From: Candidatus Deferrimicrobiaceae bacterium | Lineage (GTDB): Bacteria; Desulfobacterota; Deferrimicrobia; Deferrimicrobiales; Deferrimicrobiaceae | Reading direction: 5' to 3' | Assembly: GCA_963792415.1 (NCBI GenBank) | Contig: CAWBVY010000006.1 | Span: 718,113 to 782,112, forward strand | DNA length: 64,000 nt | In this document: positions 2,390 through 63,395 of the stretch, in pieces | Layout: each line of letters opens with the position of its first letter | Numbering within the stretch: position 1 is the stretch's first letter | The notes under the pieces: generated by a model | Told to the model about the DNA's origin: nothing | Database searches by the model: none | Seen by the model: the letters and a program-made list of their open reading frames with translations, nothing else | Position numbers and translations under genes: made by a program

Positions 2390-4035
2390 AGCTCCAGGAG
2401 AACGGGAACGATCATCGGTTTCCGATCGATTCGCTTGTTGAAGAAGCGGCGCACCACCCTCCGGATCACGGTCTGCATCTCCGCCGTGTCGGTCCGCGCG
2501 TCGGCCCCGATCTCCCCGATCGCGCGGAGAACCTCGTCCCGCGCCCCCTCGACGAACTCCTCGGAGCCACTTTCCGTCACGACGCCGCGGGTGACGATAT
2601 CGGGACCGTAGAGGAGTTCGCCCGTGGTCGAGGAGAAGGCGAGAACGACCATCACCAGCCCGACCTGGGAGAGGTGGATCCGATCCTTGAGAACGAGACT
2701 TTCGACGTCGCCGATCCCCTTTCCGTCGACGAAGCGGCGCCCGACCTCGATCCGCCCGGCGAGCGACATCTTCCCCCCCGAGAAGGCGAGCACGTCGCCG
2801 TTCCGCAGCATCGCGACGCGCGGCACCCCCAGCTCCCGCGCCAGGTTCCGGTGCCGGACGAGGAGCCTCGGCTCCCCGTGGACGGGGACGAAATTCGCCG
2901 GCCGGACCGCAGCGATCATCGTCCGGAGCTCCTCGACGCTTGCGTGCCCGGACACGTGGATCTCCGATATCTTCTCATAGAGAACATCCGCCCCCGCGAG
3001 AAAAAAACGGTTGATGAGGCCCGCGATCGCCCGCTCGTTGCCGGGGATGAATTTCGAGGAGAGGACGATCGTGTCCCCCGGCCTCACCTTCAGATGCTTG
3101 TGCTCTCCGAGGGCCATCAGCGATAGCGCCGACCTCGGCTCCCCCTGGCTTCCGGTGGTGAGCACCGCCACGGCACGGTCCGGCAGCGAAACCGCCTCCT
3201 CGACGGGGATCAGGATGTCCGGCGACGGAAGCGCGAGGTAACCGAGGTCGATCGCCGTCGCCACGTTCCGCACCATGCTCCTTCCGCACAGGGCCACCCG
3301 CCGGCCGCAGTTGCCGGCCGCCTTGATCACCTCCTGGATCCGGTGGAGGTTCGAGGAGAACATGCCCACCACGACCCTCCCCGTGGCCTGTCCGAAGATC
3401 TCCGAGAGGGCCTCTCCGACGAACTTTTCCGGCGGGCTCACCCCCTCCCGCTCCACGTTCGTGGAATCGGAGAAGAGCGCGGTGACCCCTTCCGCGGAGA
3501 TTTCCCGGAGCCGTTCGATCCCGGTCGGCACGCCGTCGAGTGGATACGGGTCGATCTTGAAATCCCCCGTGTGGACGAAGAGTCCCTCGGGGCAGCGCAG
3601 CACGTATCCCACGGCGTCGGGGATGCTGTGGGAGACGGGGAACGCCTCCACGTCGAAGTTCCCGACGCGGAACCGGTCGTCCCGCGCGATCGGGAAAAGC
3701 CGCGCGGACGCCTCGAGCCCCTGCTCGGCGAGGCGGTGGCGCAGCAGGCCCAGCGTCAGGCGGGTCCCGTAGACCGGTATGTCGAATTCGCGGAGCAGGA
3801 AGGGGACGGCGCCGATGTGATCCTCGTGCCCGTGGGTGAGCAGGAGCGCGCCGAGGTGGGGCGCCGTTTCTCGCAGGACGGAAAAGTCGGGGACGACGTA
3901 GTCGACCCCCAGCATCGTGTCGTCGGGGAACAGGAGACCAGCGTCGATGAGCAGCGCGGAGCCGCCGTCGTCGAACAGCATGCAGTTGAGGCCGATCTCG
4001 CCCAGCCCTCCCATCGGGATCACTCGCAGCGTCAT
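2386..4035 (-). CDS. rnj: Ribonuclease J (metallo-beta-lactamase / beta-CASP RNase)
   Basis: 549 aa; HGHEDHIG MBL motif, beta-CASP region, RNase J C-terminal domain; 4 nt overlap with ftsK start. Confidence 0.9.
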   Translation of the reverse strand: MTLRVIPMGGLGEIGLNCMLFDDGGSALLIDAGLLFPDDTMLGVDYVVPDFSVLRETAPHLGALLLTHGHEDHIGAVPFLLREFDIPVYGTRLTLGLLRHRLAEQGLEASARLFPIARDDRFRVGNFDVEAFPVSHSIPDAVGYVLRCPEGLFVHTGDFKIDPYPLDGVPTGIERLREISAEGVTALFSDSTNVEREGVSPPEKFVGEALSEIFGQATGRVVVGMFSSNLHRIQEVIKAAGNCGRRVALCGRSMVRNVATAIDLGYLALPSPDILIPVEEAVSLPDRAVAVLTTGSQGEPRSALSLMALGEHKHLKVRPGDTIVLSSKFIPGNERAIAGLINRFFLAGADVLYEKISEIHVSGHASVEELRTMIAAVRPANFVPVHGEPRLLVRHRNLARELGVPRVAMLRNGDVLAFSGGKMSLAGRIEVGRRFVDGKGIGDVESLVLKDRIHLSQVGLVMVVLAFSSTTGELLYGPDIVTRGVVTESGSEEFVEGARDEVLRAIGEIGADARTDTAEMQTVIRRVVRRFFNKRIDRKPMIVPVLLEL

Positions 4036-5424: not shown

Positions 5425-6372
5425 ATGTTTGCCATGGAAGGGAAACCGCTCACCGAACTGCTGTCGTCGTTCCGCGCGAACGTCGAAACCGTTCTCCTCG
5501 GGAAACGGGAGTCGGTGGACCTGGCGATCGCCTCCTTCATCGCAGGAGGCCACGTTCTCCTCGAGGACGTCCCGGGCACCGGCAAGACGACGCTGGCGCG
5601 GGCTCTCTCCTCGGGAATCTCGGGGACCTTCCGCCGGATCCAGTTCACGAGCGACCTGCTTCCCCAGGACATCATCGGCATGCACATCCTCGACGCGGAC
5701 CGGAAATCGTTCGTCTTCTCGCCCGGGCCGCTGTTCGCGAACGTCGTCCTCGCAGACGAGATCAACCGGAGCAACCCCAGGGCCCAGAGCGCCCTGCTCG
5801 AAGCGATGAGCGAGCGGCAGGTGACGGTGGACAACCGGACCTACCCTCTTCCCGAGCCTTTCCTCGTCATCGCGACGCAGAACCCGTACGAGCAGCACGG
5901 GACGTACCCTCTCCCGGAATCCCAGCTCGACCGTTTCAACCTCCGTCTGCGCCTCTCCTACCCGGACCGCGATTCGGAACGGCAGCTCATCCGCGAGAAC
6001 AATCTCCTCACGATGCGGGACGGAATCCCGGCGTCGATGCGGCCGGAGCAGATGCGGGCGCTCCGGGCGGAAGTCGACCGGGTGACCGTCCACGACGCGG
6101 TCATCGACTACATACAGCGGCTCGCGGCGGCGACCCGGGCCCACCCCGCCGTCCGCCTGGGCGCCTCCCCCCGCGGGGCGATCGGATTGAAGAGCACCTC
6201 GCAGGCGCTGGCCCTCCTCTCGGGACGTGACCACGTGATCCCCGGAGACGTCCGCAGAGCGGCGGTTCCGGTCCTCTGCCACCGCGTCTTCCCGAAAGGG
6301 GAAGCCGCCGGGTCGGAAGCCGCCCAGACGATCCTCGAGGAGGTCCTCTCGGTGGTGCCGTCGCCGCTGTGA
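5425..6372 (+). CDS. MoxR-family AAA+ ATPase
   Basis: Real start MFAMEGK inside a longer artefactual ORF; Walker A GTGKTT, Walker B VLADEINR, typical ~316 aa MoxR. Confidence 0.9.
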   Translation: MFAMEGKPLTELLSSFRANVETVLLGKRESVDLAIASFIAGGHVLLEDVPGTGKTTLARALSSGISGTFRRIQFTSDLLPQDIIGMHILDADRKSFVFSPGPLFANVVLADEINRSNPRAQSALLEAMSERQVTVDNRTYPLPEPFLVIATQNPYEQHGTYPLPESQLDRFNLRLRLSYPDRDSERQLIRENNLLTMRDGIPASMRPEQMRALRAEVDRVTVHDAVIDYIQRLAAATRAHPAVRLGASPRGAIGLKSTSQALALLSGRDHVIPGDVRRAAVPVLCHRVFPKGEAAGSEAAQTILEEVLSVVPSPL

Positions 6373-28149: not shown

Positions 28150-28641
28150 TCATGGAAGCTGCTTCGCCGCCTTCTCGACGGCGTCCGCCATCGCCTTCCG
28201 GCCGGCCCGGATCTTCGCCAGGATCTTCGGGGACGAAAGGGAAAGGATCTGCGCCGCGAGGTGCCCCGCGTTCTGCGCCCCCGCCTTTCCCACGGCCATG
28301 GTCGCCACCGGGACACCGGCGGGCATCTGAACGGTCGAGAGCAGGGCGTCGAACCCGCCAAGGGCCGACCCGGCCAGCGGCACCCCGATCACCGGGAGCA
28401 CCGTCTCGGCGGCGACGCACCCGGCGAGGTGCGCCGCGGCCCCCGCCCCGGCGATGATCACCGAGAACCCTTCCTTCTCCGCCCGGCGGGCCAGCGCCTG
28501 GGTCCGGCCCGGCGAGCGATGCGCGGAGGCGACGGTCATCTCGCACGGGATCCCGTAGCCCGACAGCACCTCCGCCGCCGCCCGCATCGTCTCCGCGTCG
28601 GAGGCGCTTCCCATGAGGATCAGGACCTTCCCGGCCATCAT
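28150..28641 (-). CDS. purE: N5-carboxyaminoimidazole ribonucleotide mutase
   Basis: Real start MMAGKVLILMGSASD inside a 632 aa artefactual ORF; 163 aa PurE; ATGA overlap with purD stop. Confidence 0.9.
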   Translation of the reverse strand: MMAGKVLILMGSASDAETMRAAAEVLSGYGIPCEMTVASAHRSPGRTQALARRAEKEGFSVIIAGAGAAAHLAGCVAAETVLPVIGVPLAGSALGGFDALLSTVQMPAGVPVATMAVGKAGAQNAGHLAAQILSLSSPKILAKIRAGRKAMADAVEKAAKQLP

Positions 28642-29924
28642 CCGTTCCCCCGTGCGAGCGCCTTTCGCCCGATGTCGGTGCGCCAGTAGGCGCCTTCCCA
28701 ATGGATCCTGTCCACGGCGCGGTATGCGCGGGCGATCGCCTCCTTCAGCGTGTCGCCGATCGCGGTGACGCCGAGAACACGTCCCCCGTGGTTCACCAGG
28801 CGACCTTCCTTCATCGCCGTGCCGGCGTGGAACACCACCACGCCCTCCTCCTTCTCCGCCTCCTCGATTCCCCCGATGGCGCGCCCCACCTCGTACTTCC
28901 CCGGGTAGCCGCCGGACGACATCACGACGCAGACCGTCGGCCTCGGGTCGATCTCCATCTTCGCGTCCGTGATCTTCCCCCGCGCGCACTGCAGGAGCAG
29001 GGGGACGAGATCGCTTTTCAGGCGAAGGAAGAGCGGCTGCGCCTCGGGGTCTCCGAAGCGGACGTTGAACTCGAGGACCCGGGGGACTCCCCGTTCGATC
29101 ATGAGACCCGCGTAGAGGATGCCGCGGAAGACGATCCCCTCGGCACGAAGGCCCGCCAGCAGCGGCTCGAAGATCTCCCGGTGCACCCGCGCCTCGACGT
29201 CGGGCGTCACGACCGGCGCGGGGGAGTATGCCCCCATCCCGCCGGTATTGGGTCCGGCATCGTTGTCCCCGATCCTCTTGTGGTCCTGCGAGGATGGGAG
29301 CGGGACAAACTTGTCCCCGTCGGTGAAGACGATGTACGACGCCTCCTCGCCCGGCAGGCACTCCTCGATCACGACGCGCTCCCCCGCGGGGCCGAACACC
29401 CGGCGCTGCATCACGTCCTTCAGGAACGCGATCCCCTCCTCGAACGTCTGCGCGACGGCGACGCCCTTCCCCGCCGCGAGTCCGTCCGCCTTGACCACCA
29501 CCGGCAGCCGGTGGGTAAGCAGATATTGCTCCGCCTCGTCGTACTCTCCGAACACCTTGAAGGAGGCCGTCGGGATCCCGTACTTCCCGAGGATGGTCTT
29601 CATGAAGACCTTGGACCCCTCCATCTGCGCTCCCGCACGGTCCGGGCCGCAGACGAGGAGGCCCTCCTTCGTGAGCAGGTCGGTCAACCCAGCCGCCAGC
29701 GGGGCCTCGGGGCCGACCACGGTGAGGTCGATCCTCTTCGACACCGCGAATTTCCGCAACCCGTCGAGGTCGTCCATCGCCAGGGGAGCGCACTCCGCGT
29801 ACCGCGCGACCCCGGGGTTGCCGGGCGCGGCGTAGATCCTGGACACGAGGGGGCTCTTCGCGATCTTCCAGGCCAGGGCGTGCTCGCGACCGCCGCCGCC
29901 GACGATGAGGACGGAGATTCCCAT
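28638..29924 (-). CDS. purD: Phosphoribosylamine--glycine ligase
   Basis: 428 aa MGISVLIVGGGGREHALAW... ATP-grasp PurD. Confidence 0.95.
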   Translation of the reverse strand: MGISVLIVGGGGREHALAWKIAKSPLVSRIYAAPGNPGVARYAECAPLAMDDLDGLRKFAVSKRIDLTVVGPEAPLAAGLTDLLTKEGLLVCGPDRAGAQMEGSKVFMKTILGKYGIPTASFKVFGEYDEAEQYLLTHRLPVVVKADGLAAGKGVAVAQTFEEGIAFLKDVMQRRVFGPAGERVVIEECLPGEEASYIVFTDGDKFVPLPSSQDHKRIGDNDAGPNTGGMGAYSPAPVVTPDVEARVHREIFEPLLAGLRAEGIVFRGILYAGLMIERGVPRVLEFNVRFGDPEAQPLFLRLKSDLVPLLLQCARGKITDAKMEIDPRPTVCVVMSSGGYPGKYEVGRAIGGIEEAEKEEGVVVFHAGTAMKEGRLVNHGGRVLGVTAIGDTLKEAIARAYRAVDRIHWEGAYWRTDIGRKALARGNG

Positions 29925-29951
29925 TCCATCTTCCTCCGCTTTGAAGTGCTA

Positions 29952-30115
29952 AGTGTAGCGTCTCGCAAATATCCTGGCATTCGAACGCCGCTGCATCCGC
30001 TCCAGCTTCGTTGCGCCAGTTCGACGTACTCTCCCGGTACGCCTTCACTGCCGCGCCTTGCTGGCGCGGCGCATCGACGCTCTCGATGCTCAGGCTATTT
30101 GCGAGACGCTACACT
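29952..30115. repeat. Structured intergenic repeat, copy A: 20 bp perfect terminal inverted repeats flanking a ~125 bp core
   Basis: AGTGTAGCGTCTCGCAAATA at 29952-29971 and its reverse complement at 30096-30115; core contains a local hairpin GCCGCGCC..GGCGCGGC; homologous to copy B at 50658-50803. Confidence 0.65.
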
Positions 30116-31676
30116 AGTGCCGGAAGTGCCGCACTCCGGTGAACACCATCGCCATCCCGTGCTCGTCGGCCGCGGCGATCACTTCCGCGTCCCGGACCGA
30201 CCCGCCCGGCTGGATCACCGCCGTGGCCCCCGCCCCGGCGGCCACGTCGAGACCGTCGCGGAACGGGAAGAAGGCGTCGGAGGCGACGACCGTCCCCTTC
30301 GTCGGGTGCTGCGCCTTCATCACCGCGATTTTCGCCGAGTCGACCCGGCTCATCTGCCCCGCCCCCACACCGACGGTGCGGTCCTTCATCGCGTAGACGA
30401 TCGCGTTCGATTTTACGTGCTTGCACACCTTCCACGCGAACAGCATCGCCTCGAGCTCGTCCGCGGTGGGCTTCCGCTTCGTCACCACCTTCAGGTCCTT
30501 CGGGTCGAGCACGTGCCGGTCGCCCGTCTGCAGGAGGAGCCCGCCGCTCACCCGCTTCATCTCGAACGTCCTGGCTTCCGACCACCGGAACGCGCCGCCC
30601 GTGGCCAGGACGCGGAGGTTCTTCTTCGCCGAGAGGATCTTCCGCGCCCCCTTGTCGTAGGAAGGGGCGATGACCGCCTCGAAGAAGGTGTTGGCGATCT
30701 CCCGGGCCGTCTCGGAGTTCACGGGCCGGTTGAATCCGATCACGCCGCCGTAGGCGGAGACGGGGTCGCAACTGCGCGCCTTCTTGAAGGCATCCAGGAG
30801 ACGGCGCTTCGAGACACCCACGCCGGAAGGGTTCGTGTGCTTGATGACGACCGCGGCGGGGATGGCGAATTCGAGAGCGAGCTGCAGCGCGGCGTCGATG
30901 TCGACGATGTTGTTGTAGGAGAGCTCCTTCCCCTGCAACTGCTGCGCGCCTCCCAGCGTCGGCTCGTCGGGCAGCGTGGCGTCGACGTAGAACGACGAGG
31001 CCTGGTGCGGGTTCTCGCCGTACCGGAGCCCCTGGAGTTGACGCCACTGGGCCGTGAAGGTCACGGGGAACGCCTCCACCCCTCCCTGCCCCGCGCCGAG
31101 GTAGTTCGAGATCGCCGCATCGTACCGTGCCGTCATTGCGAATGCCTTCCGCCCGAGTTCCTTCATGGTCTCCTCGTCGAGATTTCCGGCGTTCTTCTTC
31201 AGCTGCGCGAGGACCAGGGGGTAGTCGGCGGGGTCGCATACCACCGCGACCGACTGGGAGTTTTTCGCGGCGGACCGGAGCATCGAAGGTCCGCCGATGT
31301 CGATGTTTTCGATCGCCTCCTCCCGGGTGCAGCCGGGGCGGGCAACCGTGGCCTCGAAAGGATAGAGGTTCCCGATCAGCATGTCGAACGGGACGATCCC
31401 GTGCTCCGCGATCGTCTTCATGTGCGCCGCGTTCCCGCGCAGGGCGAGAAGCCCCCCGTGGATCTTCGGGTTCAAGGTTTTCACCCGCCCGTCCAGCATC
31501 TCGGGGAACCCCGTGTACTCCTCGATGAGGCGCACCGGGACCTTCTTCTCCCGAAGCAGTTTCGCCGTTCCTCCCGAGGCGTACAGCTCGACGCCGAGCC
31601 GGGAGAGCGCGGCGCAGAACTGCGCCACGCCGGTCTTGTCGGATACGCTGACGATCGCCCGATGGATTCTCGCCAT
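30114..31676 (-). CDS. purH: Bifunctional AICAR transformylase / IMP cyclohydrolase
   Basis: 520 aa [16 protein letters not shown]... MGS-like + AICARFT domains. Confidence 0.95.
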
Positions 31677-38303: not shown

Positions 38304-38390
38304 GCCGGAGTGGTGGAACTGGCAGACGCGCGGGACTCAAAATCCCGTGTCCGCGAGGACGTGAGGGTTCAAGTCCCTCCTCCGGCACCA
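38304..38390 (+). tRNA. tRNA-Leu (anticodon CAA), class II with long variable arm, encoded CCA
   Basis: Acceptor GCCGGAG/CTCCGGC; D-arm GTGGTGGAACTGGCAGACGC; anticodon stem CGGGA/TCCCG with loop CTCAAAA; long variable arm; T-loop TTCAAGT; 3' ACCA; promoter-like TTGGAA..TATAAA upstream. Confidence 0.9.
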
Positions 38391-48917: not shown

Positions 48918-50642
48918 CTACCGGAAGAAGGCTTCGTAGCGGGCGCGCAGCGCGTTTCTTCTCAGGCCCCCGTCGATCACCCCCCAGGGGAAAAACTCCC
49001 CGCCGCCTTTCTCCCGGAAGACGACAGACGACAGCGCCCCGGCCAACCCGGGCGCGGAGCGCAGGAGCTTTCCGGGAGGTGCCGTCCGAAGGCTCGCGGA
49101 CACCCGGCGGTCCGAGAGCCCGAGGTACCCCTGCACGACCGCGTCCCACGGGGTCGAAGCGGAGACCCGGACGTTGGGGACCGCTCGTACGATGGCACTC
49201 ACGCCCTTCCCTCGCGACTTCAGCTCCTCCTCCGGGATCATCGAAGCCCATTGCAGCGGAGTGAACGGCTTGGGAACGAAGGGAGAGAGCACCGCCGTCA
49301 CGACGCCCATCCGGCCGACCCCGCGCGCGACCTCGAGAACGCGCTCCCGGAAGGTCCCGAGGAACCGCGCGATCCCCCCGACCTCCTCCTCCCAAAGCGC
49401 CCCGGGAAGGCCAAGCAGGAAATACAGCTTGAACGAGACGATTCCCGAACGGGCCAGGACCTCCGCGGCGGCGAAGAACACCTCGTCCGGCACCCGCTTC
49501 CCGACGCGCGCGCGCAGCCGGGCATCGCCGCATTCCGGCGCCAGCGCCACCGTGCGGTGTCCGCTCCGTGCGAGGATCTCCGCGATTTCCTCGTCGACGA
49601 GGTCCGCGCGGACGGAGGCCGGCGAAACCGTCCCGCCGCGCTCGAGGATCTCACGCGCCAGCTCCCGGAACGGACGCCAGTCGAGGACCGCGGCGCCGAT
49701 GAGACCCACCTTTCTGCGGTGCGGCCACGCCGCGTCGACGGCCGCGCGCACGCGGTCGATGGGAAACTCCCGGAAGGAGGGGCAGGCGTGGGCCGCTGCG
49801 CAGAACCCGCACATCCCCGGGCAGCCGCGGGAAGTCTCGACGAGGGACATTCTGCCCAACTCCGTCTCCTCCGACAGGATGACGGGCGGAGCCGGAGACA
49901 GGGAGCGAAGATCGAGGACCTCGCGCGCGACGCGGGCGGGGAACCCCGGGAACGGTTCGATCGCCCGAAGCACGGGAAGCCGGCCGGAGGTCCGCTCCGC
50001 CGGGGACGACTCCCCGTATTCCGGCCGATATCCCCCGGGGACATACACGCCCGGAATCGCGGAGAGTTCCCTTCGGTATCCGGAATCCCCCGCAGGCCCG
50101 GGTCCATGGTCCAGGAGGAGGTCCACCGCGCGCTCCCCGTCGCCCACGACCACGGCATCGGCGAAGACCCCGACCGGCTCCGGATTGAGCGACGCGGCGA
50201 ACCCGCCGGCGACAACGAGGGGGTACCGGGCGCCGGAGGCGGCACGATCCTCCCGGAATGGGGGAATCCCGCCCGCGGCGAGGATCGCGGGGACGTTCAG
50301 AAGATCGTTCTCGTAGGAGAGGGAGATCGCGACGACGTCGAACGAGGAAAGGGGACGCCCGCTCTCGAGCGTCCTCCCCTCGGTGGGCGAATTTACGGAA
50401 CCGGCCCCCGAGCCCCGCGGCGGGGCACGCCGACGCCCGTCCCCCGACAGGAAGACCCGCTCGCAAAGGGCGTCCGGACGCGCGTTGATCCGGGCGTAGA
50501 TCAGGAGGAACCCGAGGTTCGACATCCCCGCCGCGTACCGGTTGGGGTAGACGAGCGCGACGCGGATTCCGACTCCCCAATCCTTGCGCGCGGCGAAGAT
50601 CTCTTTTTCGGGCGCGGAACCCCCGCGGTGCGGCCTTCCCAC
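48918..50642 (-). CDS. B12-binding-domain radical SAM protein (TIGR03960-like), start uncertain
   Basis: N-terminal IRVALVYPNRYAAGMSNLGFLLIY, radical SAM Cys cluster CPGMCGFCAAAHAC; first plausible start is GTG at 50642 (the track ORF extends over repeat B). Confidence 0.75.
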   Translation of the reverse strand: MGRPHRGGSAPEKEIFAARKDWGVGIRVALVYPNRYAAGMSNLGFLLIYARINARPDALCERVFLSGDGRRRAPPRGSGAGSVNSPTEGRTLESGRPLSSFDVVAISLSYENDLLNVPAILAAGGIPPFREDRAASGARYPLVVAGGFAASLNPEPVGVFADAVVVGDGERAVDLLLDHGPGPAGDSGYRRELSAIPGVYVPGGYRPEYGESSPAERTSGRLPVLRAIEPFPGFPARVAREVLDLRSLSPAPPVILSEETELGRMSLVETSRGCPGMCGFCAAAHACPSFREFPIDRVRAAVDAAWPHRRKVGLIGAAVLDWRPFRELAREILERGGTVSPASVRADLVDEEIAEILARSGHRTVALAPECGDARLRARVGKRVPDEVFFAAAEVLARSGIVSFKLYFLLGLPGALWEEEVGGIARFLGTFRERVLEVARGVGRMGVVTAVLSPFVPKPFTPLQWASMIPEEELKSRGKGVSAIVRAVPNVRVSASTPWDAVVQGYLGLSDRRVSASLRTAPPGKLLRSAPGLAGALSSVVFREKGGGEFFPWGVIDGGLRRNALRARYEAFFR

Positions 50643-50657
50643 GGCTAAGTGTTGCGC

Positions 50658-50803
50658 TTCATGGATACGGTGTCGCACCGAGAGGGTCGATGCGCCGCAT
50701 CCGGCAAGGCGTCGTGACCGAGGCGTACTTGACAAGTACGGTGAGGGAGCGCAACGCAGCCGGGGCGGATGCAGCGGCACTCGAATGCAACCGTATCCAT
50801 GAA
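50658..50803. repeat. Structured intergenic repeat, copy B: 14 bp terminal inverted repeats, nested palindromes, inverted orientation relative to copy A
   Basis: TTCATGGATACGGT at 50658-50671 and its reverse complement at 50790-50803; central palindrome CGTACTTGACAAGTACG; about 75 % identity to copy A over ~140 nt. Confidence 0.65.
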
Positions 50804-50826
50804 ACGCAGCACTAAAGTTCCGACGG

Positions 50827-61997: not shown

Positions 61998-63395
61998 TTA
62001 CGCCATGACCTCCATGAGATCCGCCGCCACCTCGTCGAGGCGCATCCCCCGCGATCCCTTCACCAGGACGACGTCCCCTTCCCGGACGAATCCGCGGACC
62101 GCCTCCCGGAGCCTCGCGCGGTCGGTCGTGTGATCGATCGCGGCGTCCCTCATCCCCCCCTCCTTCGCCCCGCGCGCGGCATGGGCCGCGTCGGCGCCGA
62201 ACGCGAAGAGCCGGTCCACGGAGAGAGCGGCGATCAGGTGTCCGAGGCGGAAATGCGACGCGGGAGAGTTCTCTCCGAGTTCCAGCATGTCGCCGAACAC
62301 GACGACGGTGCGCCGACCCCGGGCCAGCGACGCGAGGGAGCGCAACGCGGCCTCGGTGGATGCGGGATTGGCGTTGTAGCTGTCGTCCAGCAGGAGCCCG
62401 CCTCCCCGAAGCGGCACGGCGTGAAACCGGCCAGGCACGGAGACGAAGCCAGCGAACCCCTCTTCCATCTCTTCGGGGCGCATCCCGAGGGTGAAGGCAG
62501 CGGCCGTCGCCGCGAGGGCGTTCATCAGGTGGTGCTCCCCGGCGACCCCGACGAAGGAAGAGAACTCGCCCGCCGGCGTTTGAACGACGATCCGCATCCC
62601 CGCGTCGGACATCGAGACGATCCGTCCGGAGAAGTCGTTCAGCGCGACGCCGTAGTGGACCTTTTCCGCGCGGCAACGTCCCGCCTCGCGGACGACGCGG
62701 AGGTCGGTCGCGTTGACCACGGCGGTGCCGCTGCCGCCAAGGGCCCGGAAGAGGTCCCCCTTCTCGCGCGCGATTCCTTCCATGGTGCCGAACCCTTCGA
62801 GGTGCGCGGGGGCGATGTTGGTGATCACCGCGATGTCGGGGCAGGCGATGTCGGCCAGCCGGGCGATCTCCCCCGGGGCGTTGGATCCCATCTCGAGGAT
62901 CGCCGCGTCATGCTCCCCGGACAGTTCGAGCAGCGCCAGGGGCATCCCGATCAGGTTGTTCCGGTTTCCGGGATTTCGCAGCACGCGGCGGGACCGCGAG
63001 AGGAGACAGGACAGCATCTCCTTCGTGGTCGTCTTCCCGGAACTCCCGGTGATTCCCACCAGGGGGATGTCCCGGTGCCGATGCCGGTGGGCCCGCGCCA
63101 TGTCGCCGAGGGCTTCCACCGGGTCCCGGACGACGAAGACCGGCTTCGTCCCGGCCAGTCCGCCCGGCACCTTCCGCGCGCCCGCCTCCGAGACGATCGC
63201 GGCGAGCGCGCCTTTACCGAACGCCTCGGCGACGAAGTCCGCGCCGTCGGCACGCTCCCCCGGGAGGGCGATGAAGACGGAACCCGGCCCTATGTTCCGG
63301 CTGTCGGCGGTGACCGCCCCGATCGGTTCCGACGGGGAGATCCCCCCCGCCTCCCGCAACGGGTGGATCGCCCCGATCACTTCGGGGAGCGTCAT
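61998..63395 (-). CDS. murF: UDP-N-acetylmuramoyl-tripeptide--D-alanyl-D-alanine ligase
   Basis: Internal start [13 protein letters not shown] of a 534 aa track ORF; Mur ligase [11 protein letters not shown]. Confidence 0.9.

Follow-up and report, generated by a model that had tools for sequence, protein, structure and literature searches.

A probable miniature inverted-repeat transposable element between purH and purD of a Candidatus Deferrimicrobiaceae bacterium, and the repeat family to which it belongs

Within a stretch of 64,000 nucleotides (nt) from contig CAWBVY010000006.1 of Candidatus Deferrimicrobiaceae bacterium (assembly GCA_963792415.1, positions 718,113 to 782,112 of the forward strand), which will be called the window, an element of 164 nt lies between the stop codon of purH and the start codon of purD. 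We interpret this element, copy A, as a miniature inverted-repeat transposable element (MITE), i.e., a non-autonomous element, of a previously undescribed family, and we put the probability of this interpretation at roughly 0.7; that copy A is a mobile, non-autonomous repeat of some kind is highly probable. A preliminary description, made from the letters of the window, had left the choice between a REP/MITE-like mobile repeat and a structured RNA, and its first option is borne out by a dispersed, multi-copy family with terminal repeats, by direct TA or TWA flanks, and by orthologous sites that are filled in some genomes and empty in others. Bacterial MITEs are described as small elements with terminal repeats, terminal TA, target duplications, and long stem-loop transcripts (PMC2229807), and the elements discussed here are likewise small and non-coding, end in terminal repeats, occur as dispersed copies with direct TA, TTA, or TAA flanks at sites that are empty in some relatives, and have a predicted stem-loop transcript. 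The A+T-richness stated for “most” MITEs, which is not a strict rule (PMC2229807), is lacking, as copy A has 61–62% G+C, compared with 67.5% for the window. The features needed in what follows are:

29952..30115, minus strand: copy A, AGTG...CACT, 164 nt (nhmmer 153.8 bits, E = 1.5e-45)
29952..29976, no strand: left terminal inverted repeat of copy A, 25 nt, 96% complementary to 30091-30115, of an arm type common to many copies
30091..30115, no strand: right terminal inverted repeat of copy A, which pairs with the left arm
29977..30090, minus strand: conserved family core, from the alignment, self-pairing to give the inner part of the hairpin; a block of 21 nt within it is fixed by the search pattern
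30115..30116, no strand: TA flank on the purH side, which with the terminal G of the element makes the purH TAG stop
29950..29951, no strand: second TA, on the purD side, a putative target-site duplication; gives a second TAG after the element in gene sense
29922..29937, minus strand: ribosome-binding site (GGAGGA) and ATG of purD, as read from the sequence
50648..50813, plus strand: copy B, AGTG...CACT, 166 nt (nhmmer 146.8 bits), in the spacer between ftsZ and a radical-SAM gene

The evidence that both window copies are insertions comes from relatives in which the orthologous sites are empty. At the purH/purD junction of three relatives, L120 and L121 (PurD 87–88% identical) and L122 (82%), the PurH C-terminus ...RHFRH, which is the same in the window, is followed by TGA, TAA, or TAG and then, after 12–22 nt, by the purD ATG. 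In the window the same junction reads CAC TAG/TG...element...CAC/T TAG, followed by a 24-nt spacer with GGAGGA and the ATG. An identical copy A is present in a separate JGI assembly (L124), and therefore the element is not an assembly artefact. A third state is found at L123:286-310, in a relative with a 94% identical PurD, where a mini-hairpin of 21 nt, GTGTAGCG/AGACGCTACAC, occupies the site and the interior is deleted between GCG microhomologies; from its sequence, this remnant looks like either a palindrome-stimulated deletion of copy A or an excision scar. Likewise, the ftsZ/radical-SAM site is empty in L179, where the spacer measures 17 nt, and in L180 (FtsZ 89–90%), and filled in L178 (93%) and L087, with lengths that fit a TTA (or T+TA) duplication. 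Other filled and empty pairs are L009/L036, L021/L103, and L057/window, and the empty-site lengths fit a duplication of 2–3 nt at L057/window, copy B/L179, and L009/L036. Such filled, empty, and remnant sites constitute a large, datable set from uncultured lineages.

Copy A begins with AGTGTAGCGTCTCGCAAATA (29952-29971) and ends with the exact reverse complement of this sequence (30096-30115), so that the perfect 20-nt arms reported at the outset were found as described; they extend to 25 nt with one mismatch (24/25, 96%), enclose 114 nt, and, at 48–52% G+C, are the sole relatively A+T-rich part of the element. The right arm overlaps by 2 nt the TAG stop (30114-30116) of purH (30114..31676, minus strand, with AICARFT/IMPCHase domains), again in agreement with the preliminary description, and the left arm is separated from the purD ATG (29922-29924; gene 28638..29924, minus strand) by 27 nt rather than the 28 given there. 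Both the ribosome-binding site and the ATG of purD are outside the hairpin, and therefore purD keeps its own translation start. The element is indeed the only sizeable insert in a packed operon: the purD-purH gap is 189 nt, whereas tsaC and purE (28150-28641, a gene call by codon-position G+C) are 25 nt apart, purE and purD overlap by 4 nt, and purH and an mlaD-like gene are separated by 56 nt.

Copy B is in the opposite orientation and shares 82% identity with copy A over the alignment, with a conserved core and arms that differ from those of copy A by paired changes. It sits in the 17-nt ftsZ/radical-SAM spacer, antisense to both genes, and its flanks form a direct repeat, TAA...TAA on the plus strand (TTA...TTA in gene sense). 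The homologous copy that had been placed at 50658-50803 is thus real, with slightly longer bounds (50648-50813), and the core motif is present twice in the window compared with 0.02 occurrences expected by chance. With copy B inserted, the radical-SAM gene has its likely GTG start codon only 6 nt beyond the element (window 50627-50632), and any ribosome-binding site of this gene must now fall in the terminal arm of the element. A possible third copy at 62334 was rejected as a chance match within coding sequence.

The wider family was collected from a contig collection with one genome per species, from which all genome loci were fetched by an exact 19-base core pattern. The pattern matched at least 119 stretches in more than 30 metagenome-assembled genomes (MAGs), with up to at least 10 loci in single MAGs. 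A profile (nhmmer) built from 57 simple copies recovered 85 full-length copies among these stretches and, in the window, only copies A and B. Except for large paralogous families, the genes beside the copies are unrelated to one another. Together with the empty sites in relatives, these numbers refute a locus-specific terminator or a chance palindrome. Simple copies measure 156–187 nt (about 165 nt), and terminal inverted repeats of 20–30 nt are present in every aligned copy, while truncated, chimeric, and internally deleted copies also occur. Four of the six reading frames of copy A contain stop codons, and copies differ by 1-nt indels. Full-text literature searches for the family sequences and for repeats in Deferrimicrobia returned no description; BLAST searches of PLSDB plasmids with the element, and of plasmids with the end of a sister family, gave no meaningful match; and the viral contigs searched contain neither the core nor the terminal repeat.

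The hosts are for the most part MAGs with the names Candidatus Deferrimicrobiaceae, Deferrimicrobium, or “Deltaproteobacteria bacterium” (phylum Candidatus Deferrimicrobiota). Diverged subfamilies are found in MAGs that carry the labels Acidobacteriota, Gemmatimonadota, Actinomycetota, Nitrospirota, and Anaerolineales, although mis-binned short contigs may account for some of these labels. Many MAG contigs start or end inside the element (L005, L017, L022, L037, L041, L044, L052, L064, L073, L079, L089, and L099), which suggests that it breaks short-read assemblies. The family would account for many contig breaks in Deferrimicrobiaceae MAGs, and it supplies or replaces the stop codons of neighbouring genes.

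In the better-folding orientation the consensus ends read Y-TA/GTG...CAC/TA-R. The commonest flank form is C-TA-GTG...CAC-TA-G, and other copies have TTA...TTA or TAA...TAA. In about nine of ten informative copies with TTA or TAA flanks, the middle base repeats directly and not as its complement, which therefore argues for target duplication and not for extension of the palindrome. A well-supported open reading frame (ORF) reads into one or both ends of 61 of the 85 copies, stopping within 60 nt, and in about 37 of these (~40% of all copies) the stop codon is within the terminal TAG or TAA of the element. The simplest reading of this clustering at gene ends is target preference combined with survivorship: in a genome of 67.5% G+C, most TA-containing targets would be found at stop codons or within short spacers, where insertions, such as those that regenerate the stop, would be harmless. 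Another family member (L057:6088-6272) is found in the same operon of a related MAG, four codons inside the 3′ end of purE, where it removes ...KQLP and supplies a TAA stop; the empty counterpart of this insertion is at window ~28164.

Copy A was thus inserted in the lineage of the window, its target being the TA within the purH stop codon (context C-TAG), and the stop was regenerated from the target TA and the first G of the element, leaving a second TA(G) on the far side. If copy A is a MITE, a transposase acting in trans would recognise the terminal repeat GTGYASCGTCTCGCAAATA and cut at TA. This mechanism would most resemble the cut-and-paste of IS630/Tc1-mariner elements, which insert at TA and duplicate it (PMC2170065), the alternative being an IS5/PIF-like 3-bp TWA duplication. 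The form C-TA/GTG...CAC/TA-G fits the TA-only target of the IS630 type, and copies with TTA or TAA need an extra base or a 3-bp duplication. We give even odds to the proposal that the mover is a TA-targeting DDE enzyme.

The terminal repeat is also found on elements outside this family. A scan of metagenome contigs for the type-1 terminal repeat (19 nt), limited to occurrences without the family core behind them, returned 53 loci. The same 19-nt repeat, with YTA...TAG flanks, bounds soil-metagenome elements of 54, ~160, 273, and 341 nt with unrelated interiors, of which those sharing 19–31 nt of the repeat include elements of 273 nt (L152, L159, L172, L173, and L176), 341 nt (L131 and L175), and ~160 nt (L170 and L174). 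The smallest, L141:3775-3828, is a perfect palindrome of 54 nt consisting of two terminal repeats alone, and L075:2843-3051 combines another arm type with a different core. On sequence grounds, the shared repeat looks like a transposase-binding end common to several non-autonomous elements.

The points that weigh against a MITE moved in this way concern its target, its transposase, the sample, and the hairpin itself. Regarding the target, A/GTG and CAC/T are themselves 80–92% conserved, which makes the exact element boundary ambiguous, and the duplication is not uniformly TA, some copies being best described by a 3-nt TTA or TAA; the same strings fit a TA duplication plus a variable base, a 3-bp TWA duplication, or, for the CTAG form, insertion into T^A without duplication. 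Moreover, the terminal TA has been lost from a derived arm class, CCGGCCTCCAGRGG...CCYCTGGAGGCCGG, which can be aligned with the CTAGTGG... arms and is nevertheless present at several different loci (L034:254-410, L093:2343-2494, L008:2049-2198, and L101:4732-4880); its sequence is CCAGRGG/CCYCTGG, with an outward extension of ~8 bp (CCGGCC). As for the transposase, no gene bounded by the family terminal repeats is present in the ~1.14 Mb of fetched sequence, and the solo repeats beside long contigs (L144, L128, and L149) flank ordinary genes. A regular-expression search for solo terminal repeats returned only a half element (L112) and the other-core element at L075; a scan of the 1.14 Mb for inverted repeats of at least 18 nt that are 0.7–3.5 kb apart gave only pairs of neighbouring small elements; and the 1,056 ORFs of the loci, when clustered all against all, included no recurrent mobile gene, the largest cluster being histidine-kinase-like. 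Two half-copies, L002 and L095, were considered as possible ends of an insertion sequence (IS) and rejected, as they are truncated copies adjoining ordinary genes. Regarding the sample, fetching by an exact pattern biases both the invariance of the core (its block of 21 nt) and the range over which the family seems to extend.

The hairpin raises the more specific difficulty. The whole element folds as one hairpin, with standard pairs in 97.6% of the pair cells of the alignment compared with 86.9% in shuffles, and double compensatory changes affect 36 of the 59 pairs, a number that 0 of 500 shuffles reach. In the outer stem this holds for 22 of 23 pairs, with up to five pair types per position, and the arms drift in sequence, tips included, while their pairing is kept. 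Conservation of the kind expected for a fixed binding site is not seen in the arms, and the hairpin is maintained far beyond the need of a pair of binding sites. The two strands are also unequal, as the same strand folds better in 84 of the 85 copies (mean −98.8 vs −82.7 kcal/mol). Among mismatch states inherited by at least two copies, G:T outnumbers A:C on that strand by 20 to 4 (p = 0.0015, outside the pattern-fixed block), whereas hairpin-breaking states private to one copy are symmetric (15 G:T vs 15 A:C), as in neutral decay. Therefore resident copies appear to decay neutrally while the multiplying lineages kept a hairpin of one strand, which places selection on propagation and not on the resident copies. 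Such strand-specific tolerance of G:T is not predicted by a purely double-stranded cut-and-paste, and it hints at a single-stranded step. Transcription-linked deamination was rejected by reasoning as the source of the G:T excess, since the mild antisense bias of the family (see below) would favour A:C on the better-folding strand.

These data raise the alternative of a hairpin-dependent element that moves via single-stranded DNA of one strand and is recognised by its structure, like REPIN/RAYT (Y1/HUH) or palindromes derived from IS200/IS605, in which case the TA flanks would represent the choice of a target or cleavage site and not a staggered cut. REPINs are hairpins with compensatory changes, for which a single-stranded intermediate has been proposed (PMC3116915), and the covariation, the one better-folding strand, and the contrast between inherited and private mismatches would all suit such an element, as would the inequality of the flanks, with T following CAC in 69 of 75 copies and TA preceding GTG in only 33 of 75. 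Against it, the arms are not REP-like palindromes, and their ends are AGTG/CACT, without a GTAG or CGTC tag (PMC3733652). Furthermore, the direct flank repeats and the lengths of the empty sites are consistent with a duplication, whereas HUH elements make none, and an exact 19-nt repeat common to elements with unrelated cores is what would be expected of a sequence-specific binding site. No Y1 transposase gene was seen near the copies, where no systematic domain scan of all ORFs was made. We consider movement via single-stranded DNA quite unlikely, although it is the main alternative. The broader proposal of a mobile hairpin that needs the folding of one specific strand, either as single-stranded DNA or as RNA, with the conserved core of ~115–120 nt as the selected payload, is unlikely as well; under it, arms that covary freely would have carried the core into MAGs with the labels of at least five phyla.

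Orientation on the chromosome also bears on this question. For the 75 loci that have 3 kb or more of flank, the GC skew of the flank in the better-folding orientation has a mean of −0.016, with 27 positive and 48 negative values (p = 1.6e-4), and therefore the strand with the stable hairpin tends to be the C-rich, gene-antisense strand. Selection against hairpins of such stability, either in mRNA or on the lagging-strand template, could underlie this bias. A strict strand orientation like that of IS608 was rejected, and movement via single-stranded DNA is likewise disfavoured, because the window copies, 20 kb apart in one uniformly skewed stretch, have opposite orientations and the bias in the family is only 48:27.

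A second alternative, raised in the preliminary description as a terminator, attenuator, or stabiliser, is that the element is a structured RNA serving the host, for instance an mRNA stabiliser, an RNase III site, or an attenuator that decouples purH from purD. The RNA hairpin of copy A is very stable and does lie exactly between a stop codon and the ribosome-binding site that follows: it is a single imperfect hairpin of ~80 bp with a minimum free energy of −108.8 kcal/mol on the minus strand, which is both the better-folding strand and the sense strand of the purH-purD transcript, and −91.7 kcal/mol on the plus strand (z = −11.0 and −9.5, respectively; 0 of 200 shuffles equally stable). The core has features typical of RNA, and G.U is tolerated on one strand only. 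These features are two near-invariant G.U pairs (alignment columns 48:145 and 55:138), an A.G mismatch (51/142), a bulged A (137), and a 4x3 internal loop CCGA/GAA (39-42/151-153; possibly tandem G.A) beside a GAG/CUC helix; part of them is fixed by the search pattern. In addition, ERIC and Correia elements are reported to affect the flanking mRNA via RNase E or RNase III (PMC2229807, PMC2649163).

Most of the remaining evidence argues against a function for the host as the reason for the element. A search of Rfam at gathering thresholds returned a single match in the whole window, a tRNA gene at 38304-38387, and 29850-30220 gave none even at E <= 10. The interval 29600-30500 contains no terminator-like site, copy A no promoter-like site, and the sequence after its hairpin, UUAGCACUUCAAAG, no U-run. 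The better-folding strand is, if anything, less often transcribed in sense (11 sense and 17 antisense for co-directional gene pairs; 28 and 43 for incoming genes), a mild bias in the direction of the weaker RNA hairpin, and within their own operons copy A has the sense orientation and copy B the antisense. Close relatives are without the element at both sites, one of them having deleted it; private mutations are symmetric between strands; and some copies lie between convergent genes or truncate coding ends. The inner hairpin that had been singled out in copy A, GCCGCGCC-TTGCT-GGCGCGGC, is present at 30052-30072 but is not conserved, since across 57 copies it has no covariation, pairs in 70% of cells, and has two outer pairs peculiar to copy A. 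We therefore regard a host-serving RNA as very unlikely, and the purH-purD insert is to be annotated as a mobile repeat and not as a regulatory RNA of purine synthesis. As a MITE in the pur operon, the element would be a co-transcribed passenger, and the ~80-bp imperfect duplex predicted for its RNA would lie between the stop codon of purH and the ribosome-binding site of purD. By the modelled fold, this duplex may incidentally create an RNase III site or a barrier to exonucleases, without being the reason for the element, and by analogy with Correia and ERIC any effect on pur mRNA may be equally incidental.

The comparison with known repeats can begin at the tip, where the TA/TAGTGG... of Correia elements resembles the TA/GTGG... 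of one subfamily here. Correia/NEMIS elements, MITEs of Neisseria, are also non-coding, about 100–155 bp long, and present in many copies with TA-flanked repeats of ~24–26 bp; they too have a long stem-loop transcript, occur at gene ends within operons, and have no known cognate transposase (PMC2229807, PMC2649163). The family described here differs by its host phylum, its 61% G+C, its arms that vary by compensation, and its core as the conserved part, and the promoter and terminator scan of copy A identified neither an integration host factor site nor the end promoters that enter into this comparison. Larger variants of ERIC, like the composite copies described below, arise from insertions at fixed internal positions. 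ERIC/IRU (RU-1) and YPAL (RU-2) are imperfect palindromes of 127–168 bp, intergenic and transcribed, with target duplications and reported orientation-dependent effects on mRNA (PMC2229807, PMC2759123). YPAL, unlike the present family, is without a terminal TA; for ERIC, contiguous pairs of 7 bp are listed, compared with terminal repeats of 20–30 nt here, and the element has no blastn match in 5,426 complete E. coli genomes (word size 11, E <= 0.01).

RUP of Streptococcus pneumoniae is a TA-targeting MITE that is proposed to be mobilised in trans by the transposase of IS630-Spn1, with which it shares terminal repeats (PMC2229807). By analogy, RUP/IS630-Spn1 is our favoured mechanistic model, with the difference that the parent IS is known for RUP, whereas none was found in the 1.14 Mb of fetched loci. 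REPINs mobilised by RAYT are likewise non-autonomous, multi-copy, single long hairpins with frequent compensatory changes (PMC3116915), and the strand asymmetry described above would fit their proposed single-stranded intermediate. The present family lacks the defining features of a REPIN, i.e., the REP doublet and the GTAG/CGTC tag: its arms pair with each other and are not two REP palindromes, and its copies have flanking duplications. A RAYT gene was not observed at the fetched loci, where no domain scan of all ORFs was run. If the strand asymmetry reflects the mechanism of transposition, the family would offer a tractable case for how orphan MITEs such as Correia and ERIC move, by recognition of structure or of sequence.

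Some copies depart from the simple form. Composite copies of 218–304 nt carry one or two extra modules at fixed internal positions and have different arm types; these modules, of ~78 and ~59 nt, are almost never found outside the element in this pattern-biased sample. Module A is present in L012, L014, L019, L031, L032, L046, L051, L055, L106, and L117, and module B in L009, L029, L032, L046, and L097. The copy at L070:6611-6772 is chimeric and probably arose by recombination between family members: its left arm is of the CCGGCCTCCAG class and its right arm of the GTGTACCG...AAATA class, which prevents the outer stem from pairing. Copies also occur in pairs, either in tandem and 88 nt apart (L047:5449-5612 and 5700-5866) or inverted and 1.1 kb apart (L058:2027-2191 and 3295-3460).

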